Shown: positions 139 through 36,331 of the stretch, in pieces
Position numbering within the stretch: position 1 is the stretch's first letter
Layout of the letters: every line of letters begins with the position of its first letter
Assembly: GCA_016716705.1 (NCBI GenBank)
Contig: JADJVF010000011.1
Span: 18,687 to 82,686 of the forward strand
Origin: Holophagales bacterium
GTDB lineage: Bacteria > Acidobacteriota > Thermoanaerobaculia > UBA5066
Direction of reading: 5' to 3'
Length of the DNA stretch: 64,000 nucleotides
Translations under genes and position numbers: made by a program
The notes under the pieces: model-generated
Told to the model about the DNA's origin: nothing
The model's database searches: none
Seen by the model: the letters and a program-made list of their open reading frames with translations, nothing else

Positions 139-852
139 TCAGGGCGGCGACGGCGTCGGGGTGCGGCGGAAGAGCCACTCCTCCCGGCGCCTCTCGTCGG
201 CCGTGCACGGGACGCCGAAGGAGGCGTCGAAGGCGCAGCCGGGAAGGCGGGGACCGGCGAGGTCCGGGCCCGGCGGGCGAACGAGCACCGGGTCGAGGAG
301 CGCCAGGAAGTCCTCGGAGTAGAAGGCGAGGTCGGCGATCGGGAGCGCCGGCGCGAGGCCCCTCAGCCGGGCGAGGAACTCGGGGGAGACGACCCCGGAG
401 GCGCGGTGCCTGAACGAGGACGCGTCCTTTCCAGAGAAGGCCGAGAGAGGCGCGGCGAGCCTTCCGCGGGAGCCGTCGAGGACGAGGCAGGCGTCGGGTG
501 GTTGGATGGCGGCACATTCCGGAGCGTTCGGCGGAGGAACGTTCGCGAGAGTTCGCGTGACGGTTTCACCGAGGGCGGGGAGCGTCACCTCCTCGCGGGT
601 CCCGGAGCCCACGGCGGGCTGCGTCGACCGGAGGGTCCAGCGTCCGGCCGGGGTCTCGACGAGGAGGCGGGTCTCGTCCTCGCCCTCGGTCCGCCGGAAG
701 AGGACGGACCATCGAACGCGCGGAGGACCGGGGACCTCGTAGTGCCACCGGCCGCGAGGAGTGAGTGCGCGGCCGGCAAGCGCGGGAGCGGAGACCTCTC
801 CCGCCGCGACCAGCGGGAGGAGGGTCGCGAGCAGGAGCGCCGCGCCGGCCAC
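139..852 (-). CDS. hypothetical secreted protein (about 237 aa)
   Basis: GTG start at 850-852 (RC) followed by a hydrophobic signal-like segment (VAGAALLLATLLPLVAAGEVSAP). Its start lies 3 nt after the stop of the upstream HD-GYP gene (stop 855-857), so the two look like an operon. No recognisable domain. Confidence 0.4.
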   Translation of the reverse strand: MAGAALLLATLLPLVAAGEVSAPALAGRALTPRGRWHYEVPGPPRVRWSVLFRRTEGEDETRLLVETPAGRWTLRSTQPAVGSGTREEVTLPALGETVTRTLANVPPPNAPECAAIQPPDACLVLDGSRGRLAAPLSAFSGKDASSFRHRASGVVSPEFLARLRGLAPALPIADLAFYSEDFLALLDPVLVRPPGPDLAGPRLPGCAFDASFGVPCTADERRREEWLFRRTPTPSPP

Positions 853-2827: not shown

Positions 2828-3814
2828 TCACTTCGGGCCGATGAGCGCAGAGAAGACGAGGTAGGGGTTCACGACGAGGCCCTTCCACGGACTCGGGGAG
2901 TCGGTATCGCGGAAGATGGAGAAGTGGAGGTGCGGGCCGGTGGAGCGGCCTGTCGAGCCGACCTCGCCGATCTTCTGTCCCCGCGCCACCCTGTCGCCGA
3001 CCTTGAGTCCGGGAGCGTAGCGGGAGAGGTGGGCGTAGTAATAGACGAACCGTCCCGTGGCGTCGCGCAGGTAGATGACGATGCCGCCACGGCGGTCGCG
3101 GCCGAGGCGCTCGATCGTCCCGTCATTCACCGCCACGATCGGCGTTCCCTTCGGGGCGCCGAGGTCGATCGCGTGGTGTTTCCTGTGGCGGCCGCGCGAG
3201 GCGTCGAAGGTGTCGCGCAGCTTCTCTTTCGGGAAGGACTCGATCGGAAGCGGGAAGTCCGTGGCGAAGAGGGTCGCCAGCTCCTCCTCCGGGATGGAGG
3301 CGGGCCTGCTGTCCTTCTTGCTCACGACGAGCCCCTTCAGCGTCCGTCCGAGGTTCTGCCAGAAGGATTTCTGCTCGTCGGAGAGGGAGGGGAGTACGGC
3401 CGGGACGACGGATCCACGGGAATAGAGGCCGTCTTCCATCGGCTCGTCCCCGTCGGGGTCTTCCTCGAGCGGGAGGTCGTCGGCCTGCTCGCGGGCCGCG
3501 GCAAGAATGGCCGGGAGACCGGGCGGAAGCGCCACGTGGCGGCTCTGGGGCGCCTGGTTTCCGCGCGTGATCCAGGCGAGATCGGCCTCGTCGGCCGTCC
3601 GATAGCAACTGCCGTCTTCGGGATCGCGGACAGGGCACGGATTCACGGAGCCGGGGGCGGGGGCGGACTTCTCGGCGCCGGGTGCGAACGAGGCCGTCGC
3701 GTCGGCCGGAGCCGAGCCGCCCGGGGCTCCCGCAGCGGAAGCGGACGCGGAGACAGCCGCCGCGAGGGCGAGCCCGAAGAGGGCCGCGGCCCCGGAAAGC
3801 GCGGGTCTCGTCAG
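2828..3814 (-). CDS. M23 family metallopeptidase (secreted); start codon unresolved
   Basis: M23 motifs HHAIDLGAPKGTPIVAVNDGTI...GSTGRSTGPHLHFSI. A signal peptide LTRPALSGAAALFGLALAAAVSASASAAG sits at the 5' end of the frame. No ATG, GTG or TTG precedes it, so the only candidate is a CTG (RC of 3812-3814) overlapping the efp stop. Confidence 0.7.
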   Translation of the reverse strand: MTRPALSGAAALFGLALAAAVSASASAAGAPGGSAPADATASFAPGAEKSAPAPGSVNPCPVRDPEDGSCYRTADEADLAWITRGNQAPQSRHVALPPGLPAILAAAREQADDLPLEEDPDGDEPMEDGLYSRGSVVPAVLPSLSDEQKSFWQNLGRTLKGLVVSKKDSRPASIPEEELATLFATDFPLPIESFPKEKLRDTFDASRGRHRKHHAIDLGAPKGTPIVAVNDGTIERLGRDRRGGIVIYLRDATGRFVYYYAHLSRYAPGLKVGDRVARGQKIGEVGSTGRSTGPHLHFSIFRDTDSPSPWKGLVVNPYLVFSALIGPK

Positions 3815-4371
3815 CCTGCCCTCTCCAGGTAGGAATCGTCGCGGGTGTCGATCCGGATGACCGTTCCCACGTCGACGAATTGCGGGACCATCACCTGAAG
3901 GCCGGTCTCGAGCTTCGCCGGCTTGTAGGAAGCGGTGGCCGTGGCACCCTTCATTCCCGGGTCCGTCTCGACGATCTTCAGGGCGACCGTCGTCGGGAGC
4001 TCGACGGAAATCGGGTTCCCTTCGTAGAAGTCGACGTCGATGACCGTCTCGGGAAGGAGGTACTTCATCGCGTCGCCCACGATCTCGTCCGTCAGGCGGA
4101 TCTGGTCGTAGGTCTCCTGGTTCATGAAGTGGTGCCCCTCGCTGTCCGAGTAGAGGTACTGCATCTCGTGCGTGTCGAGGCTCGCCTTCTCGATCTTGTC
4201 CTCGGAGCGGAAGCGGTGCTCGTTCATCGAGCCGGACTTGAGGCTGCGGAGCTTGGCCTGGACGAAGCCGCGGAGGTTCCCCGGCGTCTTGTGGACGACG
4301 GAGTGGGCGCGGTGAAGCTCCCCGTTGTGGACGACGATCATGCCGGCTCGAAGTTCGGTAGCTGAGATCAT
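3811..4371 (-). CDS. efp: translation elongation factor P
   Basis: 186 aa beginning MISATELRAGMIVVHNGELHRAH, typical EF-P length and N-terminus. ATG at 4369-4371 (RC), stop TGA at 3811-3813 (RC). Confidence 0.9.
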   Translation of the reverse strand: MISATELRAGMIVVHNGELHRAHSVVHKTPGNLRGFVQAKLRSLKSGSMNEHRFRSEDKIEKASLDTHEMQYLYSDSEGHHFMNQETYDQIRLTDEIVGDAMKYLLPETVIDVDFYEGNPISVELPTTVALKIVETDPGMKGATATASYKPAKLETGLQVMVPQFVDVGTVIRIDTRDDSYLERAG

Positions 4372-4475
4372 TCCGCGTCCTGGTACAGCCCTTCCGCTCA
4401 GCACAGCTTTCGCCGGACGATCCGGTCTCCTGCGGCGCCAAACGCGTGGAGGGTAAACCGACTACGCCTCCCAAA

Positions 4476-4508
4476 GCAAGCGGGACCGCCCGAAGGCGGT
4501 CCCGCTTG
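4476..4508 (-). terminator. rho-independent terminator candidate downstream of the SGNH-hydrolase gene
   Basis: Perfect 14-15 bp stem (gcaagcgggaccgcc / ggcggtcccgcttg) with a cgaa loop. On the minus strand it is followed by CUUUGGGAGG. It lies 23 nt past the stop at 4531. Confidence 0.4.
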
Positions 4509-4530
4509 GAAGCTATTTGGCTGGAATGGC

Positions 4531-6009
4531 TTAGTCGATGAGACTCACGCGCGGGACGCGAGGTGCCACCGGGATCGGGAGTTCGCCGTTGCCGTCTCCG
4601 AGGACGAGGCCCCTCGACTGGGTCGAAACGCCCATCGTCTGCCAGAAGTTCTCGAGGACTTCCGGCGTGAAGTACGCCGCGGCGTACTCGATGATTTCCT
4701 GCTGGCTCGGAGGGCCGTAGGAGCTGGTCGGGAAGCCGCCGGCCGACGTATTGCCGTTGAAGAGATACGCCGACATGTCGACCCGCGGGAGGCTCGTCCC
4801 GTAGTTCGCGTTCACGAACTGGACGAGGGCGTCCGCGACGATCGCGTAGCCCGTGGCGCTCGGGTGGACGCCGTCGTAGGAGAAGACGCCGCCCGAGAGG
4901 TAGTTCGACGTCAGTGTGATTCCGGCGAAGTCCCGCCCGTGGACGGCGATGTCGACCAGGAGAGCGGCGGCGTCGAACACCTTGTAGCCGGCCGCTTCGG
5001 CCAGGGTCCTGATCTGCTGGTTGTACTCGGTGCCACGGGCCTGCAGGAGCGACACCTCGCTCGGGTAGAGGAGGCCTGGTACTGCGGTGCCATTGATGAC
5101 GGTCCCGTTGTCCGGCAACGGGGTGTTGCACTTGGGGAGCGTGGGGGCGACAGCGCAAGGAATCCCGTACCCGGCCTTCATCAGGGCGCCGAGAGGCAGC
5201 GGCACGTAAGTTCCAAACGGCACCGGGCACGCGGGTACGCCCGCCGGGCAGCCCGTCGGCCCGAGGACGTAGATCGGAGCGCCCGTCGAGGGGTTGACAC
5301 CGAGGAAGGGCCCGACGGCCGTGAAATACGGAAGGGTCAAGACGTTCGGGATCGTCATCACGATTCCCTTTCCGGTGCCACCCTGAGCCGCTTTCATCGT
5401 GTCGACGATGGTCTTGTACGAGGCCGCGTAGGCCTCCTTGGAGATCAGCGTCACGCCGTCGATGACGGTGCCCGAGGTCGCCGGTCCGAGGAGCTCGTTG
5501 CCGAGGACGCCGATCGCGAAGAACGTCGGCTTCAGCGAAGCGGCCTGCTGGAGGACCGTGGCCCCGCTGCCCCGGAGGACGACGTCGATCAGGGCGTTCT
5601 TGCACGGCACGGTGCCGGTGTTCGTGACGCAGTTGACGACGCTCGCCCCGAGGTAGCCCGGGATGGCCAGGTTGTTGTAGGGGGTGGGAAGAGTGAGGTT
5701 CTCGGGCTTTCCGGTGTTCGGCGCGTAGCTGAAGGTCGGCGCCAGGCTCGTGAGGATCTGGCAGGGGCCGAGGCCCGGCTCGCCGATGATCGGCTGCTGG
5801 AAGCCGGAGACGCCCGCCTGGCGGGCGAAGATCGCGGGCCAGGAGTCCGTCTGGCCGTGCTTGACCCAGCAGCTGTCGATGAACCCGGCGTCGACGGACG
5901 CGCCGACGGCGACGAACTTGGTGAAGTCAGCCTGCGCGGCGGCCGGGGAGGCCGAAACCACGAGGGCGAGCGCGAAGGCGACGAGGAGGGTGTTCTTCAT
6001 GGTCTTCAC
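4531..6009 (-). CDS. secreted SGNH/GDSL-like hydrolase (lipase/esterase family)
   Basis: GTG start at 6009 (RC) with a GAGGGGG SD that overlaps the fadL stop. Signal peptide (V/M)KTMKNTLLVAFALALVVSASPAAAQA. N-terminal block VAVGASVDAGF and C-terminal block DGVHPSATGYAIVADAL fit the SGNH fold. Confidence 0.55.
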   Translation of the reverse strand: MKTMKNTLLVAFALALVVSASPAAAQADFTKFVAVGASVDAGFIDSCWVKHGQTDSWPAIFARQAGVSGFQQPIIGEPGLGPCQILTSLAPTFSYAPNTGKPENLTLPTPYNNLAIPGYLGASVVNCVTNTGTVPCKNALIDVVLRGSGATVLQQAASLKPTFFAIGVLGNELLGPATSGTVIDGVTLISKEAYAASYKTIVDTMKAAQGGTGKGIVMTIPNVLTLPYFTAVGPFLGVNPSTGAPIYVLGPTGCPAGVPACPVPFGTYVPLPLGALMKAGYGIPCAVAPTLPKCNTPLPDNGTVINGTAVPGLLYPSEVSLLQARGTEYNQQIRTLAEAAGYKVFDAAALLVDIAVHGRDFAGITLTSNYLSGGVFSYDGVHPSATGYAIVADALVQFVNANYGTSLPRVDMSAYLFNGNTSAGGFPTSSYGPPSQQEIIEYAAAYFTPEVLENFWQTMGVSTQSRGLVLGDGNGELPIPVAPRVPRVSLID

Positions 6010-6020
6010 TGGTCACCCCC

Positions 6021-7343
6021 TCAGAAGGACGTCCGGAGGTTGAGGACGGTCAGGTTCGCGTGGTTCTTGTACCGCCCGTTGAAGTTGTCGTCGTTTGTCG
6101 TGACGGACCGCTCGTTGAAGAAGAGGAAGAGGTTCGAGGCGTCGACCCAGACGTTCTTCATCATCTTCCAGCTGAAGCCGATGGAGTAGCCGTTGCGGTT
6201 CATGTCGGGGAGGAGCGGGCCTACGTCGCCGTCGGGCTCGGGAGTCTGGTCGTAGACGTAGCCGGCCATGAGGTCGAACTTGTCGCTCGCCTGCCACTTC
6301 GCGCCGAAGCGGAACGCCCAGGCGTTCTCCCAGTCGTGGGGAAGGTTGCTCGTCGGGATCTGCTTTCCGTCGACCGCCTCGAACTCGAGGACGGTCGTGT
6401 CGAAGGCCGACCACTCCGTGTAGGTACCGGCCGCCTCGACCGTGACCTTTCCGAAGTCGTAGGAGATGCCCACCTGGGTCATCGCGGGCGCCTGGATCGT
6501 CGTCTTCACCGGGACCGGCTTGCCCAGCGGGACCTTCGCGGCGAAGGCGGCGTCGAGGTCGGCGTAGCCGGTCCCGAGCTGGTAGAACATCGCCTCGCCG
6601 TCGAACTTCGCGTCGACCGCACCGTGGTAGGAGGCGCCGATCGAGAGCCTCGGGGTCGGCGTGATCTTGATGCCGGCGCCGAAGGTGACGTCCATCTCCA
6701 TGTCCGCGCGGATGTCGGTGTGCGCCGCGTCGACGACGCGGTTCGTGTAGGGGTTGAAGAGCGGGATCTTCCGCTGGAGCTTCACGTCGGTGAAGCGGAA
6801 TTCCGGGCCGACGCCGACCGCGAGGTAGTCGTTGATCTGCCAGGCGACCTGGAGGCCGGCGGCGTACTGCTTCAGGTCGACGTAGGTGGAGAGGTAGCGG
6901 CCGCGCCAGTCCGGCTCGCTCCACCTCGTCGCGAGGCCGAAGGGGAACCAGGTTCCGAAGGAGAGGCTGACGCACTCGCTGAGGCCATAAGATGCGTAGA
7001 AGTTCGGCGGGAAGAAGAACTGGTCGTGCATCTTGCTCGAGTAGCCCTGGCCCGGGTAGGGGTTGTAGCCCTCGGCGAGCTCGGACGTCGGGACGATGAG
7101 GGTCACCCCGACCATCGCCTTCAGCTCACCCTTCTTGACGTACTTGGCGAGACCCGCGGGGTTGTAGAACATGGCGGACAGATCGTCTGCCTGCGCTACG
7201 AACGCCCCGCCCATGGCCGTGGAACGGGAGCCTGCTTCAAAGATCGAGAACCCCGCGGCGGCCGCCGGGCCTGCCGCGAGCAACATGGCGGCCAGAAGGA
7301 GCGATAGCCCTCCAAGTCCGTACCGGGAACAGCCTCTCAACAC
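6021..7343 (-). CDS. fadL: FadL/TodX/OmpP1 family outer-membrane long-chain hydrophobic compound channel
   Basis: GTG start at 7343 (RC) preceded by GGAGGG. Signal peptide RYGLGGLSLLLAAMLLAAGPAAAAG, then FSIFEAGSRSTAMGGAFVAQADDLSAMFYNPAGLA, typical of FadL. C-terminal Phe is typical of an OMP. Confidence 0.8.
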   Translation of the reverse strand: MLRGCSRYGLGGLSLLLAAMLLAAGPAAAAGFSIFEAGSRSTAMGGAFVAQADDLSAMFYNPAGLAKYVKKGELKAMVGVTLIVPTSELAEGYNPYPGQGYSSKMHDQFFFPPNFYASYGLSECVSLSFGTWFPFGLATRWSEPDWRGRYLSTYVDLKQYAAGLQVAWQINDYLAVGVGPEFRFTDVKLQRKIPLFNPYTNRVVDAAHTDIRADMEMDVTFGAGIKITPTPRLSIGASYHGAVDAKFDGEAMFYQLGTGYADLDAAFAAKVPLGKPVPVKTTIQAPAMTQVGISYDFGKVTVEAAGTYTEWSAFDTTVLEFEAVDGKQIPTSNLPHDWENAWAFRFGAKWQASDKFDLMAGYVYDQTPEPDGDVGPLLPDMNRNGYSIGFSWKMMKNVWVDASNLFLFFNERSVTTNDDNFNGRYKNHANLTVLNLRTSF

Positions 7344-31882: not shown

Positions 31883-32794
31883 TCAGAAGATCGACAGCGC
31901 CGTCTTCGTCGTCAGCAGCTCGAGCGCCATCGTCCCGGCGAGCGAGTTCCCTTTCTCGCTCAGGCACGGCGACCAGACGGCCGCCACGAACCGGCCGGGC
32001 ATCACGGCCACCACTCCGCCTCCCACGCCGCTCTTGGCCGGGAGGCCGACGCGGTAGGCGTAGTCGCCCGCCTCGTCGTAGACGCCGCAGGTCAGCATCA
32101 CGGAGTTCACCCGTTTCACCTGACGCGCCGTGGCGACCTGCTCGCCGCCGGCAGAGAGCCCGGACGTGGCCAGGTACTGGAAGGCGGCGGCCAGCTCGGC
32201 GCAGCTCATCGAGAGGGAGCAGAGGAGGAAGTAGGCGTCGAGGACCCGGTCCGGGTCGTTCCTCAGGTTCCCGAACGACTTGAGGAAATGGGCGAGCGCG
32301 CGATTCCGGTGTCCCGTGGCCCGTTCCGCCTCGGCGACCGAGGTGTCGTAGCCGACGGAGGGGTTCGCAGAGGCGCGGCGGACGAAGTCGAGGACGAGGT
32401 CCTGCCCCTGGGCCTGATGGCTCAGGACCATGTCCAGAACGACGAGCGCGCCCGCGTTGATGAACGGGTTTCTCGGAATTCCGTGCTCGACCTCGAGCTG
32501 GACGAGCGAGTTGAACGCCGTGCCGGACGGCTCGCGGCCGACCCGCTCCCAGACGGTATCCCCTTCCAGCCGCATCGCGAGCGTCAGGCTGAAGACCTTG
32601 GCGATGCTCTGGATCGAGAAGCGCTCCTCAGCGTCCCCGACGGAGAAGACCTCGCTGCCGATCGTTCGGACGACCATTCCGAAACGGCCGCGCGGAACGT
32701 CGGCCAGCGGGGGGATGTAGTCGGCGATGCGGCCCCGCCCGACGAGCGGCCTCACCTCGTCGGCGATCTCCCGGAGGGTACGCTGGTAGTCCAC
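31883..32794 (-). CDS. glsA: glutaminase
   Basis: 303 aa with glutaminase motifs (…QSIAKVFSL…GVGGG…). Confidence 0.85.
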   Translation of the reverse strand: MDYQRTLREIADEVRPLVGRGRIADYIPPLADVPRGRFGMVVRTIGSEVFSVGDAEERFSIQSIAKVFSLTLAMRLEGDTVWERVGREPSGTAFNSLVQLEVEHGIPRNPFINAGALVVLDMVLSHQAQGQDLVLDFVRRASANPSVGYDTSVAEAERATGHRNRALAHFLKSFGNLRNDPDRVLDAYFLLCSLSMSCAELAAAFQYLATSGLSAGGEQVATARQVKRVNSVMLTCGVYDEAGDYAYRVGLPAKSGVGGGVVAVMPGRFVAAVWSPCLSEKGNSLAGTMALELLTTKTALSIF

Positions 32795-32937
32795 GACCCA
32801 ATGTTACCGGCGTGGCGAGGGCGGAGCCGGCGGAGATGCCAGAAACGAGCGTCACCGGCTGATCCGGACCGATGGGAAGAGACTGCGGAATCTCCGGCTC
32901 CCTCCTTTCCCTTGACTTGCGCCCAGCGCCGACCCAC

Positions 32938-32972
32938 ATTAGTAGTTGCTGTGGCTACTACTAGTGACGACA
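32938..32972. promoter_or_regulatory. AT-richer imperfect palindrome (TAGTAGTTGC-tgt-GGCTACTACTA) overlapping the TrmB-family regulator start; candidate auto-operator
   Basis: A local drop in GC and an inverted repeat, AGTAGTTGC / GGCTACTACT, centred on GTG 32951. Confidence 0.3.
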
Positions 32973-33823
32973 ATTTGTCTAAGGCACTGCAGGGGCTTGG
33001 TTTCTCAGAGATCGAGGCGCTCGTTTACGCCTTCCTGGTGGGGAGGGAACCCGCCACCGGCTACCGCATCAGCCACGGCATCGGCAAACCGACGGCGAAT
33101 AGCTACAAGGCCATTGCGTCGCTGGTTCAGCAAGGAGCGGTGCAGGTGGACGAGGGCGGGAACAGGCTGATCCGGGCCGTCCCTCCCGACGAATTTCTCG
33201 CGGGCTTCGAGCGCCGCGCCAGGGAGAAGCGCGAGGCCGCCCGTGCCGCACTCGCCGATCGGAGCGTCGACGTCGCGGACGACCGGGTCTACACCCTTCG
33301 CGGCCGCGACCAGGTCCTCGAGCGCGCCCGGGCGATGCTGGGACGGGCGCGGGAGATCGTCCTCGGCGACCTTTTTCCGGGTCCGCTCGAGGCGCTCGCC
33401 GCCGATCTTGCCGCCGCCGCCGCGCGCGGCGTGCGCGTCGTCGTGAAGGTCTACTCCCCGCTCGACGTCCCGGGAGTCGCGGAGGTGCCGGAGGCCGACG
33501 CGGCACGGGCTCTGTCCGGGTGGCCCGGCCAGCAGCTCTCTCTCGTCGTCGACGCCGACGAGCATCTCCTCGCCCTGTTCGATGCCACCCTCGCGAACGT
33601 CCACCAGGCGGTCTGGAGCCGCAGCACCTTTCTCTCGTGTCTCCACCACAACCACGTCGCCATGGAGATCCTCCACACGGCCTGGAAGGGGCGAGGCTCC
33701 CTCGCCGGTGCCGACTCCCTCGTCGGCATATCGCTCCTTTCGAGTCGGCCCGCGGGCCTGCGCCGCCTTCAGAAGCTCACCGGTGGAGCCATTTCCCCGG
33801 AACCCGATGGAGAAGACAGATGA
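32951..33823 (+). CDS. TrmB-family transcriptional regulator
   Basis: N-terminal winged-HTH LSKALQGLGFSEIEALVYAFLVGREPATGYRISHGIGKPTANSYKAIASLVQQGAV typical of TrmB, with a C-terminal effector domain. GTG 32951, or alternatively TTG 32912. Confidence 0.6.
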   Translation: MATTSDDNLSKALQGLGFSEIEALVYAFLVGREPATGYRISHGIGKPTANSYKAIASLVQQGAVQVDEGGNRLIRAVPPDEFLAGFERRAREKREAARAALADRSVDVADDRVYTLRGRDQVLERARAMLGRAREIVLGDLFPGPLEALAADLAAAAARGVRVVVKVYSPLDVPGVAEVPEADAARALSGWPGQQLSLVVDADEHLLALFDATLANVHQAVWSRSTFLSCLHHNHVAMEILHTAWKGRGSLAGADSLVGISLLSSRPAGLRRLQKLTGGAISPEPDGEDR

Positions 33824-35685
33824 ACCACGCATCCGCCCGCATACACCGGCCCCTCGCCTTCCTCGTCGGCGTGGCCACGCTGCTCGGCTCGCCGGCGCCC
33901 GCCGCGGAGCCCGCGGTTCCGCACGACGTCGCAGCCCTCATCGAAAAGCACGTCGGGTGGCTCGGCGGGTGGGAGGCCCTCGGCGCCGTTCGGGACCTGA
34001 CCCTCGCCGGGACGATCCGGGTCTCGGGTCTTTCGGGCCCCCTCGCCGTCCGCACGCGCCGCGACGGGAAGCAGAGGACGGAGGTCGACCTGAAGGTCAT
34101 GAAGGGTGTCGAGGCGCTCGCCGGCGGCGGCGGCTGGGAGCAGAACGCGAGCGGGCAGGTGGAGGAGATGGGGCACGACAAGGCCGCCTCCGAGCGCCGC
34201 GCTCTCGACCGCACCTTCGGCCGGCACTTTCGCGGTGACGGGGTGATCACGAGCCTTGCAAGCCGTGAGGAGAAGGGCGGGCGAGCGTGGACGGTCGTTC
34301 GCTTCTCCTACCCCGACGGAGATACGTACGACCTGCTCGTCGATCCGGAGACGGGAGAGTCGACGTGGTCGCGGTCCGTAGCCGACGGCCGGACGACCTG
34401 GACGAAGCTCTCCGACTTCCGGGTCGTGAACGGCCTCCGGTTCCCGTTCCGCCAGGAGACGGAAGGCGAAACGGCGCGTCAGGCGCAGACGGTGTCGTGG
34501 GAGAAGGTGACGGTCAATGCCGGTCTCGACGACGACCTCTTCGCGCGGCCGTCCACGGGCGCCTCGGTCGTTCGCCTTCCCTCGGGCCGGAATGCGACCG
34601 AGTGGCTCGCGGTCGACCTCTACCAGAAGCGCTGGGTCTATCTCCGCGGCGAGGTCAACGGCGTTGCCACCGACATCGTCCTCGATTCGGGCGCGGGAAT
34701 GACCGTTCTCGACAGCGCGCTCGCGAAGAAGCTGGGGCTCCGCGTCGAGGGAGAGCTCGAAGCGCGGGGCACCGGGGGGAACGTCGGCGCCGGAATCGTC
34801 TCGGGGGTGACGGTGAAGCTCGCGGGGATGGAGATCGGCCCGCTCTCGGCGGCCGTCATCGACCTCGCCGGCGTGGGGAAGCGGGTCGGCCGGCCCCTTC
34901 CGCTCATCCTCGGCAAGGAGCTCTTCCACGCCCTCGTCGTCGACCTCGACTACCCCGGCTCGCGCATCCGCTTCCTCGACGCCGCGACGTTCCGCTACGA
35001 CGGCCCCGGACGGAAGCTCGACCTCATCCCCGCCGAAGACGGCCACAAGAGCCTGAAGCTCGCCATCGAGGGAGGCGAGCCGGTCGTCGTGGGCCTCGAC
35101 ACGGGGCAGGGAGGCGCCCTCTCGGTCTATCGGCACTACGCCGACGAGCGGGGCTTCCTCTCGGGCCGTCCCGTTTCCGAGCGGCGATCCGGCGGCGTCG
35201 GCGGCGCCACGACGATGAAGGTCGCGACCCTGCGCTCGGTGACGATCGCGGGGTACGAGCTTCGGAACGTGCCGTCCGCCTTCCAGGCGAGCGACGTCCG
35301 CGGCGCGTTCGACACGAAGCGGCAGGAAGGGAACCTCGGCGCGGGCGTCCTTTCGCGATTCCGCGTCGTCTTCGACTACTCCCGCTCCTGCCTCTGGCTC
35401 GAGCCCGGCCCGGCCCTCGGCGCGCCGTTCCCGAAAGACAAGAGCGGTCTCGCCCTCCAGTGGGCCGAAGGGGTCCTCACGGTGGAATTCGTCGCGCCCG
35501 CAAGCCCGGCCGCCGAGGCCGGCTGGAAGGAGGGCGAACGCCTCGCCGCCCTCGATGGCAAGCCTGCCGGCGAGGACTGGTGGAAGACCTTTACCGGGTG
35601 GGCAGAGGCGAAGGCGGGTACGGAGGTTCGACTCACCCTGGCGGACGGGACGGAGCGGAAGCTGGTGCTGAAGGAGTACTACTGA
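33820..35685 (+). CDS. secreted protein with two retropepsin-like aspartic protease domains and a C-terminal PDZ domain
   Basis: ATG at 33820 overlaps the TrmB stop (ATGA). Signal peptide. DIVLDSGAGMTVLDS and VVGLDTGQGGALSV are clan-AA D(S/T)G motifs. C-terminal PDZ-like segment GVLTVEFVAPASPAAEAGWKEGERLAALDGKP. Confidence 0.65.
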   Translation: MNHASARIHRPLAFLVGVATLLGSPAPAAEPAVPHDVAALIEKHVGWLGGWEALGAVRDLTLAGTIRVSGLSGPLAVRTRRDGKQRTEVDLKVMKGVEALAGGGGWEQNASGQVEEMGHDKAASERRALDRTFGRHFRGDGVITSLASREEKGGRAWTVVRFSYPDGDTYDLLVDPETGESTWSRSVADGRTTWTKLSDFRVVNGLRFPFRQETEGETARQAQTVSWEKVTVNAGLDDDLFARPSTGASVVRLPSGRNATEWLAVDLYQKRWVYLRGEVNGVATDIVLDSGAGMTVLDSALAKKLGLRVEGELEARGTGGNVGAGIVSGVTVKLAGMEIGPLSAAVIDLAGVGKRVGRPLPLILGKELFHALVVDLDYPGSRIRFLDAATFRYDGPGRKLDLIPAEDGHKSLKLAIEGGEPVVVGLDTGQGGALSVYRHYADERGFLSGRPVSERRSGGVGGATTMKVATLRSVTIAGYELRNVPSAFQASDVRGAFDTKRQEGNLGAGVLSRFRVVFDYSRSCLWLEPGPALGAPFPKDKSGLALQWAEGVLTVEFVAPASPAAEAGWKEGERLAALDGKPAGEDWWKTFTGWAEAKAGTEVRLTLADGTERKLVLKEYY

Positions 35686-36331
35686 ACCCGGCGAGGGCCT
35701 CGACGGCCTGCGCGTAGGTTGCGGCGACCTCGGCCTCGCTCGTGCCGGTGATACCGAGGTCCTCGAGGAGGCCGTCCTCGATGCCGTAGATCCAGCCGTG
35801 GACGGCGAGCGACTGGCCGCGCGCCCAGGCGTCCCTGACGACCGTCGTGTTCGTCACGTTCAGGACCTGCTCCACGACGTTCAGCTTGCAGAGGCGGTCG
35901 TGCTCCTCCGCCTCGGTTCCGCGCGGCGCGAGGCGCGCCCGGTGCTTGTCGCGCACGTCGCTGACGTGCCTCAGCCAGTTGTCCACGAGGCCGTGCCGGT
36001 CGCCCCGGAGCGCGGCGAGGACGCCACCGCAGCCGTAGTGACCGCAGACGATGACGTGCGAAACGCGCAGGACCGCGACGGCGAAGTGGAGGGCCGACAG
36101 GGCGTTGAGATCGCTGTGGACGAAGACGTTCGCCACGTTCCGGTGGACGAACATCTCGCCCGGCATGAGGCCGACGATCTGGTTCGCCGGGACGCGGCTG
36201 TCCGAGCAGCCGATCCAGAGGTACGACGGCGCCTGCTGGCGCGAGAGACGGGTGAAGAACGCAGGGTCGTTCCGGAGCACCTCGGCGGCCCAGGCCCGGT
36301 TGTTCTCGAAGAGGCGGGGAAGGTGTTTCAT
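35633..36331 (-). CDS. beta-class carbonic anhydrase
   Basis: CSDSRV…HxxCGG motifs. ATG at 36329-36331 (RC). Its 3' end overlaps the convergent protease gene by 53 nt. Confidence 0.8.
   Translation of the reverse strand: MKHLPRLFENNRAWAAEVLRNDPAFFTRLSRQQAPSYLWIGCSDSRVPANQIVGLMPGEMFVHRNVANVFVHSDLNALSALHFAVAVLRVSHVIVCGHYGCGGVLAALRGDRHGLVDNWLRHVSDVRDKHRARLAPRGTEAEEHDRLCKLNVVEQVLNVTNTTVVRDAWARGQSLAVHGWIYGIEDGLLEDLGITGTSEAEVAATYAQAVEALAGFSSTPSAPASAPSRPPG

Follow-up and report, generated by a model that had tools for sequence, protein, structure and literature searches.

The regulator gene and the protease gene that lie side by side in the 64-kb window (the whole stretch of DNA analysed here) probably form a self-contained, auto-repressed bicistronic operon. 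Established here are the anatomy of the two genes, the domain folds read from sequence and models, the co-conservation of the pair, the conservation of the candidate operator and the co-variation of that operator with the recognition helix of the regulator. The elements of the locus are the following:

32912..32917, + strand: -35-like hexamer TTGACT, of which TTGAC is invariant in Holophagales-clade loci (10/10)
32935..32940, + strand: -10-like hexamer CACATT, 17 nt past the -35
32940..32963, no strand assigned: 24-bp palindromic candidate operator (halves TAGTAGTTGCTG and TGGCTACTACTA), centred on the GTG start codon
32951..33823, + strand: TrmB-family, TrmBL2-like regulator gene, GTG start, TGA stop (33821-33823), 290 aa
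32951-33181, + strand: winged HTH of the regulator, aa 1-77
33185-33262, + strand: long helix of the regulator, aa 79-104
33284-33700, + strand: predicted PLD-like sensor domain of the regulator, aa 112-250
33809..33812, + strand: Shine-Dalgarno GGAG for the protease gene, within the regulator 3' end, 7 nt before the ATG
33820..33823, + strand: ATGA start/stop overlap, read from both ORFs
33820..35685, + strand: gene for a 621-aa single-chain tandem retropepsin-like protease, predicted to be exported, stop 35683-35685
33820..33903, + strand: predicted Sec-type signal peptide, aa 1-28, with basic n-region, hydrophobic core PLAFLVGVATLLG and A-P-A before the predicted cut
33907..34554, + strand: LolA-like beta-barrel domain, aa ~30-245 (Foldseek)
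34603..34995, + strand: retropepsin domain 1, aa ~262-392, with DSGAG at aa 289-293 (34684-34698) and psi-psi-Gly ILG at aa 363-365
35005..35409, + strand: retropepsin domain 2, aa ~396-530, with DTGQG at aa 427-431 (35098-35112) and NLG at aa 505-507
35437..35682, + strand: C-terminal PDZ domain, aa ~540-621 (family profile)

The regulator belongs to the TrmB family and lacks a sugar-binding subdomain

A sequence-only reading of this DNA had placed the beginning of the regulator at 32938, where there is no start codon; the sole start that aligns with homologues is the GTG at 32951-32953. Its assignment of the product to the TrmB family, on the other hand, is upheld by Pfam and by superposition of the predicted structure on TrmBL2 and TrmB. 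The TrmB HTH model (PF01978) scores 53 bits over aa 13-79 against a cut-off of 25.6, Regulator_TrmB (PF11495) scores 29.4 bits against 22.2 over profile positions 2-92 of 233, and the sequence matches PDB entry 3qph with an E-value of 2e-5. Foldseek searches with the AF2 model (pLDDT 89.2) retrieve TrmBL2 (5bpd, 1.8e-13) as the best structural match and TrmB (3qph, 1.1e-11), as well as 2f5t and the PLD-fold proteins NucT, Nuc and Zucchini.

The sugar-binding beta-barrel subdomain of the TrmB/TrmBL1 type is absent from the 290-aa protein and from its AF2 model, in which the PLD-like domain is followed only by short helices and a disordered tail. The regulator therefore resembles TrmBL2, which is devoid of a C-terminal sugar-binding subdomain (PMC4158304). 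The NCBIfam equivalog models for TrmB, TrmBL1 and haloarchaeal TrmB reach 15-33 bits on the regulator, against cut-offs of 500-650. Hence, of the earlier remark that a member of this family would be expected to control sugar metabolism, the family assignment stands and the contrast itself does not, since a regulator without the sugar-binding subdomain puts it beside the point. Within the PLD-like domain, a cluster formed by Cys230, His233, Glu239 and Asp201 is invariant.

The protease carries two retropepsin domains and two flanking domains

The presence in the downstream protein of two clan AA domains in one chain (DSGAG and DTGQG), together with a PDZ domain, had been proposed from the sequence and is supported by Pfam and profile searches and by the AF2 model (pLDDT 89.7, pTM 0.85). 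Domain 1 matches Asp_protease_2 (PF13650) with an E-value of 2e-12, and its profile matches DDI1/DDI2 (~2e-5), while domain 2 reaches 23.2 bits with PF13650, just under the cut-off of 24.3. The retropepsin fold of the second DTG segment is nonetheless corroborated by a profile-profile comparison with domain 1 (hhalign, probability 92%, E = 5.5e-7), which pairs DSGAG with DTGQG and ILG with NLG at 22% identity over 106 aligned columns, and by the match of the model, over both domains, to tethered single-chain HIV-1 protease dimers (target-normalised TM 0.70-0.75, 260-270 columns). On this sequence comparison, the two predicted domains are homologous to each other and constitute an internal duplication. 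The D-T/S-G motifs, the hydrophobic-hydrophobic-Gly motifs and the bilobal retropepsin fold seen in the model are those of clan AA. A canonical homodimeric retropepsin was considered and rejected; with two diverged domains in one chain, the protein would therefore work like a retropepsin dimer without being a canonical homodimer. Pepsin family A1 was rejected as well: there is no Pfam pepsin (Asp) match, the lobes span ~130 aa against 160-170, and the similarity is structural only.

The PDZ assignment is sustained by the family profile, which matches solved PDZ structures (E ~2e-8), with syntenin, DegP, DegQ and RseP at E-values of 2e-8 to 1e-5. On the single protease sequence PDZ_2 and PDZ_6 fall below the Pfam cut-off, and many homologues carry precomputed PF13180, PF17820 or PF00595. 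The original domain list was incomplete, however, having overlooked a folded N-terminal domain of ~215 aa for which Foldseek retrieves DUF1329 (4z48) and LolA3 (9tp6), both at E = 2.6e-8, and also the LolA-superfamily protein NE2245 (3buu), a lipoprotein-sorting domain (3bk5) and LolB (9tpm). Overall, these matches have a probability of 1.0, E-values of 2.6e-8 to 7e-7 and target-normalised TM scores of 0.51-0.62. No sequence-family match was obtained for this domain, Pfam giving just a weak, sub-threshold PepSY; the modelled structure is that of the LolA-like superfamily, an open beta-barrel with a helical plug. The putative signal peptide has no lipobox Cys, and a hydrophobic N-terminus equivalent to it is present in 26/26 aligned homologues. 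The model has pLDDT below 50 at residues 1-10 and 19-28, and the fold begins at about aa 33.

The two genes overlap and are frequently conserved together

The ATGA overlap between the regulator gene and the 621-aa protease gene was confirmed at 33820-33823. Across the loci compared, a 4-nt ATGA overlap occurs in 24 of 36 evaluable cases (it is also found in L083, L084 and L086), a gap of at most 30 nt separates the genes in 9 more, and most of the overlapping pairs have GGAG where it stands here.

Near-full-length protease homologues number 91, and 40 of the 80 loci examined have the regulator gene as their direct upstream neighbour, in the same orientation. Co-conservation of the pair, examined in this manner, thus spans at least six phyla, the carriers belonging to the Acidobacteriota, Eisenbacteria, Krumholzibacteria, Planctomycetota, Myxococcota, and Alpha- and Gammaproteobacteria; around the protease, no other neighbour family is conserved in the 80 loci. 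Viewed from the regulator, the protease adjoins 4 of 6 homologues; one homologue (P0207) stands alone, with no partner gene. Some 30 loci with sufficient upstream sequence have neither regulator nor palindrome, among them close relatives at 53-59% identity, and the link is therefore frequent, not obligatory. Neither of the two objections that the sequence-only reading had raised in advance, a second segment without the retropepsin fold and a lack of co-conservation, was borne out. The protease family profile retrieves ~3,690 clusters at 50% identity (E <= 1e-30). The architecture, which had been called unusual, is so with respect to characterised bacterial retropepsins but not overall, given those clusters and the tandem structure 9iy9.

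A conserved palindrome overlaps the putative promoter and the start codon

The inverted repeat consists of TAGTAGTTGC (32940-32949), tgtg and GCTACTACTA (32954-32963), with 9 of 10 arm positions complementary and a perfect outer TAGTAGT-N10-ACTACTA; its right half doubles as the codons for regulator residues 2-5 (A-T-T-S). It is unique in the window except for one overlapping match at 32937-32960, offset by 3 nt and carrying 3 mismatches. With 3 or fewer mismatches allowed, ~0.1 matches would be expected by chance in the window, and 0 of 100 shuffles reached 2 matches. Allowing one mismatch, 27 of 40 loci have TAGTAG-N4-14-CTACTA where the regulator gene starts; elsewhere the motif turns up just three times in 943 kb. 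Two of those three sites belong to Caulobacter loci without an adjacent regulator gene and precede the protease ATG by ~50 nt. The palindrome also accompanies some regulator homologues that are followed by another gene (L081). The repeat noted around the GTG is, in short, real, centred on the start codon and conserved across phyla. In the Myxococcaceae, a variant palindrome, TTATTAC-N-GTAATAA, accompanies the recognition helix KAPPSIYQ in place of KPTANTYK; in the sequences compared, the candidate operator co-varies with the recognition helix of the regulator.

In the Holophagales clade, no variation is seen in the -35, at positions 2 (A, 32936) and 6 (T, 32940) of the -10 or in either palindrome arm, whereas the 17-nt spacer is variable. 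One locus (L010) has TACAAT where the window has CACATT. Loci from other phyla (L013, L014 and L031) follow the pattern TTGACN-17-TAnnnT-7-ATG, with the -10 within the left half-site, and two more (L022 and L048) have 16-nt spacers and 7-8 nt to the ATG. A simple scan called no sigma-70 promoter here, the -35 included, and the -10 of the window, CACATT, is weak. Leaderless genes are characterised by a TANNNT element ~12 nt ahead of their start codon (PMC3160421). From this arrangement, transcription is predicted to start at ~32947-32951, with a leader of 0-4 nt. The palindrome, which shares the last base of the -10 (32940), would thus overlap the -10 of an apparently leaderless promoter.

According to PMC4158304, TrmB-family proteins recognise palindromes composed of TACT/AGTA elements at promoters or transcription starts, and cases of auto-regulation are on record. 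The suggestion that the regulator controls its own synthesis, previously drawn from the repeat, now has strong comparative support in operator conservation, promoter overlap and co-variation, and we infer it on these grounds.

Proposed mechanism and alternative explanations

Beyond auto-regulation, we infer DNA binding by the regulator, repression over activation, a leaderless start, export and catalysis, as well as a ligand and a substrate, and propose the following scheme. A regulator dimer would bind the 24-bp palindrome (32940-32963), covering the predicted transcription start and the GTG of its own leaderless, or nearly leaderless, mRNA and shutting out RNA polymerase. A signal sensed by the PLD-like C-terminal domain would free the regulator from the operator and allow synthesis of the bicistronic mRNA. 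Ribosomes ending the regulator gene would re-initiate at the ATGA overlap, aided by the internal GGAG, and protease would therefore be made in fixed proportion to its repressor. After leaving via the Sec pathway, the protease would pack its two retropepsin domains as an intramolecular pseudo-dimer resembling tethered HIV protease or a small pepsin, to which each contributes one catalytic Asp (D289 and D427). The PDZ domain may dock substrate C-termini, while for the LolA-like domain two roles are proposed: holding a lipid or hydrophobic portion of the substrate, or acting as a pro-domain that covers the cleft.

As regards the role of the protease, it is conceivable, albeit doubtful, that it is a periplasmic regulatory or quality-control enzyme instead of a general extracellular nutritional one, with the LolA-like and PDZ domains recognising lipoproteins or exposed C-termini of envelope proteins. 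Folds of the LolA/LolB/RseB type bind acyl chains, and such folds are among the structural matches; the best PDZ matches include DegP, DegQ, RseP and Ctp proteases. A dedicated one-gene regulon with fixed stoichiometry to the regulator suggests a specific task, and the characterised secreted retropepsins of bacteria (RloA) serve stress tolerance, not nutrition (PMC12239564). Nevertheless, no feature was found that would place the protease in the periplasm over the cell exterior, no envelope-stress regulator is linked to its gene, and the soil and sediment oligotrophs and predators that carry it are rich in secreted hydrolases. This possibility refines the auto-repressed operon and does not contradict it.

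It seems unlikely that the regulator activates, or both activates and represses, through the palindrome, or that another protein binds there and the TrmB-like protein has other targets. Members of the family may act as repressors, activators or both, and TrmBL2, the closest structural match, is chromatin-like, with little sequence specificity on DNA (PMC4158304); some regulator homologues are orphans, and some have different partner genes. A site spanning -10 to ~+12, however, has the classic geometry of repression, and the palindrome tracks the regulator gene through varied neighbourhoods and changes with its recognition helix.

Less probable still is a 5' mRNA hairpin burying the GTG start in its loop, by which control would be translational and the palindrome would not be an operator. 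If both arms were transcribed, the RNA would fold at -14 kcal/mol (z = -3.3, 0/200 shuffles as stable) with the GUG in the loop, and the arm changes from clade to clade are complementary, as a hairpin would also need. Yet, judging from the conserved -35 and -10, transcription would begin at the start codon or a few nt ahead of it, leaving the left arm out of the RNA. Furthermore, in the Myxococcaceae and Phycisphaerae the palindrome occupies the interval from the -35 to the start codon, where it overlaps elements of the core promoter; in a Caulobacter locus (L038) it lies ~50 nt upstream of a gene with its own SD and leaves out the start codon. Co-variation with the recognition helix is unexplained under an RNA model, and there is no Rfam match.

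Finally, that the protease is a catalytically dead binding protein, like the plant pepsin-fold xylanase inhibitors and 7S globulins, is highly improbable: although Foldseek also matches inactive basic 7S globulin, conglutin gamma and EDGP, and the middle residue of the second motif may be T, V or L (giving DVG or DLG in some clades), both Asp, both Gly of the D-x-G motifs and both psi-psi-Gly glycines (D289, G291 and G365; D427, G429 and G507) stay unchanged across 26 sequences whose identity falls as low as 26%, a pattern that indicates selection on the catalytic dyad.

Significance of the proposed auto-repressed operon

Full-length TrmB regulators, comprising DNA-binding and effector domains, are mostly archaeal (2014 TrmB-family review, PMC4158304), and no bacterial full-length member with a described regulon was found in the literature. 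The operon proposed here would provide a clean case, with a single operator and a single target, and is carried by bacteria that can be cultured, Caulobacter, Phenylobacterium and Myxococcus among them; with only two genes and a predicted operator, it is directly testable. If the scheme is correct, core promoter, operator, translation start and N-terminal codons all share the same 24 bp, a compact instance of overlapping codes on a leaderless mRNA; an operator centred on the start codon would also explain the conserved Met-Ala/Thr-Thr-Thr N-terminus of the regulator.

A duplication-fusion step has long been proposed to link dimeric retropepsins to bilobed pepsins. As a large family (thousands of clusters) of predicted natural single-chain retropepsin pseudo-dimers, the proteases described here are useful for asking about the route from retropepsin dimer to bilobed pepsin and about the evolution of asymmetric active sites. 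More tentatively, the pair might represent a widespread, undescribed bacterial module, in which the Cys230/His233/Glu239/Asp201 cluster would let a TrmBL2-like repressor respond to a signal other than sugar, perhaps a metal or thiol oxidant, and in which a single DNA stretch would combine promoter, operator, translation start and the first four codons of a leaderless mRNA. Such a module would deliver a natural tethered retropepsin, an independent living example of the duplication-fusion step, equipped with lipid- and C-terminus-binding domains for a specific envelope substrate.

Comparison with known systems

Like TrmBL2 and TrmB of Pyrococcus and Thermococcus (5bpd and 3qph), the regulator proceeds from a winged HTH through a long dimerisation helix to a PLD-like alpha/beta domain, at only ~17-20% identity to those structures and in a bacterial host. 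TrmB and TrmBL1 possess the C-terminal sugar-binding barrel that TrmBL2 and this regulator (290 aa versus 338) lack. Its proposed target is a protease gene, in contrast to the sugar transporter or glycolytic genes known as targets of the family, and a single, specific 24-bp site seems to set it apart from TrmBL2. Both here and in the TrmB family, a palindrome containing AGTA and TACT elements lies at the promoter or transcription start (predicted here), but the half-sites read AGTA...TACT with much wider spacing, instead of the TACT...AGTA of TrmB and TrmBL2 sites.

For the protease, the best structural match is 9iy9 (E = 7.8e-15, 311 columns), a Bacteroides fragilis 'exported protein / putative endopeptidase' released in 2025, for which no paper was found. 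Its profile likewise reveals an N-terminal domain followed by a single-chain pair of retropepsin repeats (FDTGAG and FDTGNS, residues 164-408), but at 420 aa the protein ends right past the second repeat, without a PDZ domain, and its identity is ~16%. APRc of Rickettsia is an exported retropepsin-like protease with the clan AA fold and a D-T/S-G motif. RloA/RimB of Pseudomonas are secreted retropepsin-like proteins with the same fold and motif (PMC12239564). Unlike in these proteins, two diverged domains are fused here and flanked by LolA-like and PDZ domains. In the model, as in pepsins (A1) and engineered tethered HIV-1 protease dimers, two homologous lobes per chain would supply one Asp each, and plasmepsin and penicillopepsin are matched by Foldseek at E-values of ~1e-8 to 1e-7; in size (~130 aa) and in their Pfam matches the lobes are nevertheless of the retropepsin type, the pepsin model giving no match. 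The duplication seems to have arisen separately from that of pepsins. DegP/DegQ/DegS, RseP and the Ctp proteases share with this predicted exported protease a PDZ domain of the same sequence type, but they are serine or metallo enzymes and this one is aspartic, with its PDZ domain C-terminal to the pseudo-dimer and its gene paired with a dedicated cytoplasmic regulator.

Organization and conservation of the gene pair

The pair noticed by the sequence-only reading, a TrmB-family regulator gene followed by a protease gene, is real, and the interpretation given to it holds after correction of the regulator start (32951), of the regulator type (predicted to be TrmBL2-like and not sugar-sensing), of the protease domain list (which gains a LolA-like domain) and of the assumed rarity of an architecture that is common in sequence databases. 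So corrected, the pair would form a module in which a bacterial TrmB-type auto-repressor, with an operator centered on its own start codon and probably a leaderless mRNA, is translationally coupled to a predicted single-chain retropepsin. Both ORFs lie on the same strand and occupy the space between a glutaminase-like and a carbonic-anhydrase-like ORF.

Features of the regulator-protease region (window coordinates unless given as protease residues)
31883-32794, minus strand: divergent glutaminase-like ORF, name read off the translation
32912-32917, plus strand: predicted -35 element, clade-invariant TTGAC
32935-32940, plus strand: predicted -10 element, clade-invariant at positions 2 (A) and 6 (T)
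32940-32963: palindrome TAGTAGT-N10-ACTACTA, predicted operator
32951-33823, plus strand: TrmB-family regulator gene, 290 aa
33551-33667, plus strand: invariant cluster D201-E239 of the regulator sensor domain (regulator aa 201-239)
33809-33812, plus strand: GGAG within the regulator gene, 7 nt 5' of the protease ATG
33820-35685, plus strand: protease ORF, 621 aa, ATG at 33820, read from the sequence
33821-33823, plus strand: regulator stop codon TGA, read from the sequence
Protease aa about 262-392, plus strand: retropepsin domain 1 (Pfam E = 2e-12)
Protease aa about 396-530, plus strand: retropepsin domain 2 (Pfam 23.2 bits, just below the 24.3 cut-off)
Protease aa about 540-621, plus strand: PDZ domain, from the family profile against solved PDZ domains
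35633-36331, minus strand: convergent carbonic-anhydrase-like ORF, name read off the translation

The proposed start/stop overlap is borne out by an ATGA common to the regulator end and the protease start. No start codon exists at 32938, where the regulator had been taken to begin, and the aligned upstream regions of its homologs place the start at GTG 32951, which is replaced by ATG in other loci. An SD sequence is absent before the regulator gene, the left half-site of the palindrome filling that position. The regulator side and the divergent glutaminase-like gene share an intergenic region of 156 bp (32795-32950). At the other end, the protease and carbonic-anhydrase-like ORFs overlap at their 3' ends by 53 nt (35633-35685), where a simple terminator scan of 32700-35900 found no terminator-like site; the same scan returned a single one, at chance level, within the regulator gene. 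No Rfam match was obtained for 32700-33900, and a defense-system reading was rejected, PADLOC giving only noise-level matches (E about 1e-3).

Of 80 fetched genomic loci, each encoding a protease homolog, 40 have a regulator homolog (39-92% identity) as the immediate upstream neighbor in the same orientation, which confirms the co-conservation of the two genes. The regulator-carrying loci belong to Holophagales, Thermoanaerobaculia, Eisenbacteria, Krumholzibacteria, Phycisphaerae and other Planctomycetota, as well as to Myxococcus, Corallococcus, Pyxidicoccus, Caulobacter, Phenylobacterium, Sphingomonadaceae and Gammaproteobacteria. Clustering of all ORFs in the fetched loci identifies the regulator as the only neighbor family kept beyond close relatives, and this sole conserved linkage, in half of the loci, rules out chance adjacency. 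Upstream synteny is kept only among close relatives, and the carbonic-anhydrase-like ORF has a homolog as neighbor in nine close-kin loci. Of 36 evaluable loci, 24 share the ATGA overlap, in most cases preceded by GGAG at a distance of about 8 nt; in nine more, no more than 30 nt separate the two genes. An apparent in-frame regulator-protease fusion in one locus, L050, was rejected on account of a TGA at its positions 5911-5913.

The regulator is missing from about 30 loci with sufficient upstream sequence, and its link with the protease is therefore frequent, not obligatory. Upstream of these TrmB-less proteases no other conserved regulator family was found, the ORFs there being mostly spurious high-GC ones. 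Starting from the regulator side, the protease lies directly or nearly downstream in four of six homologs; of the other two, one is followed by an unrelated gene of 365 aa and one has no partner gene. The locus of protein P0172, one of the four, has a 370-aa regulator, then a 203-aa ORF that shares 4 nt with the regulator gene, then a short-form protease of 434 aa with Asp_protease_2 and PDZ, and looks like a split version in which the LolA-like part is a separate gene, the 203-aa product being the candidate.

A palindrome at the regulator start codon

The palindrome, perfect over its outer 7 bp, had been noticed as an inverted repeat around the regulator GTG. Its pattern has about 0.1 expected chance matches in 64 kb, and the only other match in the window is an overlapping one, shifted by 3 nt, with three mismatches. 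The consensus at regulator starts across phyla is TAGTAGTAGCcA|TgGCTACTACTA, with ATG or GTG central. A search of 943 kb of fetched loci for TAGTAG-N4-14-CTACTA with at most one mismatch placed the pattern at 27 of the 40 regulator starts, against just three occurrences in any other position. Two of these three stray sites (TAGTAG-N6-CTACTA) occur in Caulobacter sp. loci with no adjacent regulator gene, about 50 nt 5' of the protease ATG:

L038, 5860-5877: stray palindrome; the protease ATG is at 5926, with its own SD sequence GAAGGAG
L039, 5888-5905: stray palindrome

Hence, the palindrome stays with the protease where the regulator gene is absent, which suggests that the protease may be regulated there in trans by a regulator copy elsewhere in the genome.

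The palindrome is centered on the start codon in Acidobacteriota, Eisenbacteria and Caulobacterales, and ends at it in Phycisphaerae, some Gammaproteobacteria and locus L081. In the latter, a palindrome of the same type (TTAGTAGCATATACTACCAA, 3980-4003) ends 2 nt ahead of the ATG of a regulator homolog (48-50% identity), which is preceded by two ORFs of only 50 and 77 aa and followed by an unrelated 365-aa protein without Pfam match (4954-6051). The Myxococcaceae carry a different palindrome, TTATTAC-N4-6-GTAATAA, between the -35 element and the start, and only there is the predicted recognition helix altered, from K-P-T-A-N-T-Y-K to K-A-P-P-S-I-Y-Q. Such a joint change of site and helix would be as expected for a predicted operator and its repressor. 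In agreement with this assignment, known TrmB-family sites are TACT/AGTA-based palindromes at promoters or transcription starts (PMC4158304).

A simple sigma-70 scan of 32700-35900 called no promoter, and the promoter was placed by comparative footprinting. Several loci (L014, L013, L031) present TTGACN-17-TAnnnT-7-ATG with the -10 element within the left half-site, the L014 version being TTGACA-17-TATAGT-7-ATG; L022 and L048 follow a similar pattern, in which the spacer is 16 nt and 7-8 nt remain before the ATG. Throughout the Holophagales clade that includes the window, TTGAC, the A2 and T6 of the -10 element and both palindrome arms are invariant, while the 17-nt spacer is free to vary. This invariance places the predicted -35 and -10 elements and a putative transcription start 0-4 nt ahead of the GTG. 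A TANNNT about 12 nt 5' of the start codon is a signature of leaderless bacterial genes (PMC3160421), and the regulator mRNA is probably leaderless. The right half-site coincides with regulator codons 2-5, and this double duty would explain the Met-(Ala/Thr)-Thr-Thr N-terminus conserved in the start-centered class.

It is conceivable that the regulator activates instead of repressing, although activation fits poorly with the -10/+1 position of the palindrome. The palindrome might also be taken for an RNA hairpin, given that the region as RNA would fold to -14 kcal/mol with the GUG buried, but this is argued against by the inferred promoter, which leaves the left arm outside the transcript, by the location of the palindrome within core promoters in other clades and by its different placement in the Caulobacter loci.

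The TrmB-family regulator

Two Pfam models score over cut-off on the regulator: the TrmB winged helix at 53 bits and the TrmB effector domain, matched in its N-terminal part, at 29.4 bits. NCBIfam equivalog models score far under theirs. By sequence, the sole solved relative is Pyrococcus furiosus TrmB (3qph; E = 2e-5, residues 8-166). The AF2 model (24 homologs as input, pLDDT 89.2) consists of a winged HTH, a 26-residue helix and an alpha/beta domain followed only by short helices, and its best PDB match is TrmBL2 (5bpd, E = 1.8e-13), with TrmB (3qph) next. The regulator is thus a member of the TrmB family but lacks the sugar-binding barrel by which the sugar-sensing members are defined. The sequence-only reading had set it against the usual role of TrmB regulators in sugar metabolism; the model supports a TrmBL2-like, not sugar-sensing, member of the family.

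Matches to the PLD-fold proteins NucT, Nuc and Zucchini cover the C-terminal domain alone; inspection of the alignment by eye shows no HKD catalytic motif, as known from PLD enzymes, in this domain, and an enzymatic role was therefore set aside. Across 40 orthologs from several phyla, W191-P192-G193, D201, S223, S225, C230, H233 and E239 are invariant or nearly so, a single helix carrying C230-x-x-H233 and E239. Hypothetically, these sensor-domain residues might form a ligand, metal or redox site. An HHNH run is present in the Acidobacteriota regulators and is not kept in Myxococcaceae or Caulobacterales.

Domain organization of the protease

The protease N-terminus combines a basic stretch, a hydrophobic core of 13 residues and A-P-A ahead of residue 29, which fits a Sec signal peptide without lipobox, and the model is disordered at the N-terminus and folded from about residue 33; from these N-terminal features alone, we infer that the protein would be exported. 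The AF2 model (26 homologs as input, pLDDT 89.7, pTM 0.85) has four folded parts. The first, overlooked in the earlier domain list, spans residues about 30-245 and matches LolA-superfamily/lipoprotein-sorting folds (3buu, 9tp6, 4z48, 3bk5, 9tpm). As sole query of a homolog search it gave three matches, the best of which (P0357) has surroundings that resemble a fragmented assembly.

Profile-profile comparison shows the two retropepsin domains to be homologous (probability 92%, E = 5.5e-7), the alignment pairing DSGAG with DTGQG and ILG with NLG, and the predicted pair superposes on HIV-1 protease dimers engineered as single chains (TM 0.70-0.75), more closely than on pepsins. Both lines of evidence uphold the claim of two such domains in one chain, the second included. 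The C-terminal PDZ domain is likewise supported, by family-profile matches to the PDZ domains of syntenin, DegP and RseP (E about 2e-8). The protease may be a periplasmic, substrate-specific enzyme or may be a general extracellular one; a catalytically inactive binding protein is unlikely, since all of 26 sequences, the most distant at 26% identity, keep both Asp, both D-x-G Gly and both psi-psi-Gly Gly residues.

Distribution of the architecture and comparison with known systems

A full HMMER scan of the family profile against 1.84 billion cluster representatives yielded 3,690 with E <= 1e-30. These comprise proteins of 600-630 aa, the form of the window protease, many of about 400 aa in which the LolA-like domain is missing, and some of 1,000-1,200 aa (P0267, P0274, P0285, P0302) with two stretches matching the profile, the best covering nearly all of it in the C-terminal half. 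Some genomes hold more than one copy: one Planctomycetota locus (L065) has a full-length and a short-form protease (534-2249, 5354-6544), and two Caulobacterales loci have a short-form paralog, with two retropepsin domains and PDZ and without the LolA-like domain, just upstream of the regulator-protease pair:

L059, about 3274-5049: short-form paralog, separated from the pair by a 216-aa ORF
L066, about 3265-4338: short-form paralog

Literature searches found no description of the conserved regulator-protease module, nothing on the TrmB family with an aspartyl protease, nothing on the module under bacterial TrmB with leaderless mRNA and autoregulation, nothing on bacterial retropepsin-like proteins with PDZ or with tandem retropepsins, and no paper describing the PDB entry 9iy9. 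The architecture had been called unusual; the number of representatives speaks against rarity, and the term holds only in comparison with characterized bacterial retropepsins. The characterized bacterial retropepsins RloA, RimB and APRc are all single-domain homodimers (PMC12239564), and thus the single-chain form is unstudied rather than unusual. The best PDB match of the protease is 9iy9, a Bacteroides fragilis 'exported protein' released in 2025, which likewise joins two retropepsin repeats (residues 164-408) in a single chain, with the motifs FDTGAG and FDTGNS.
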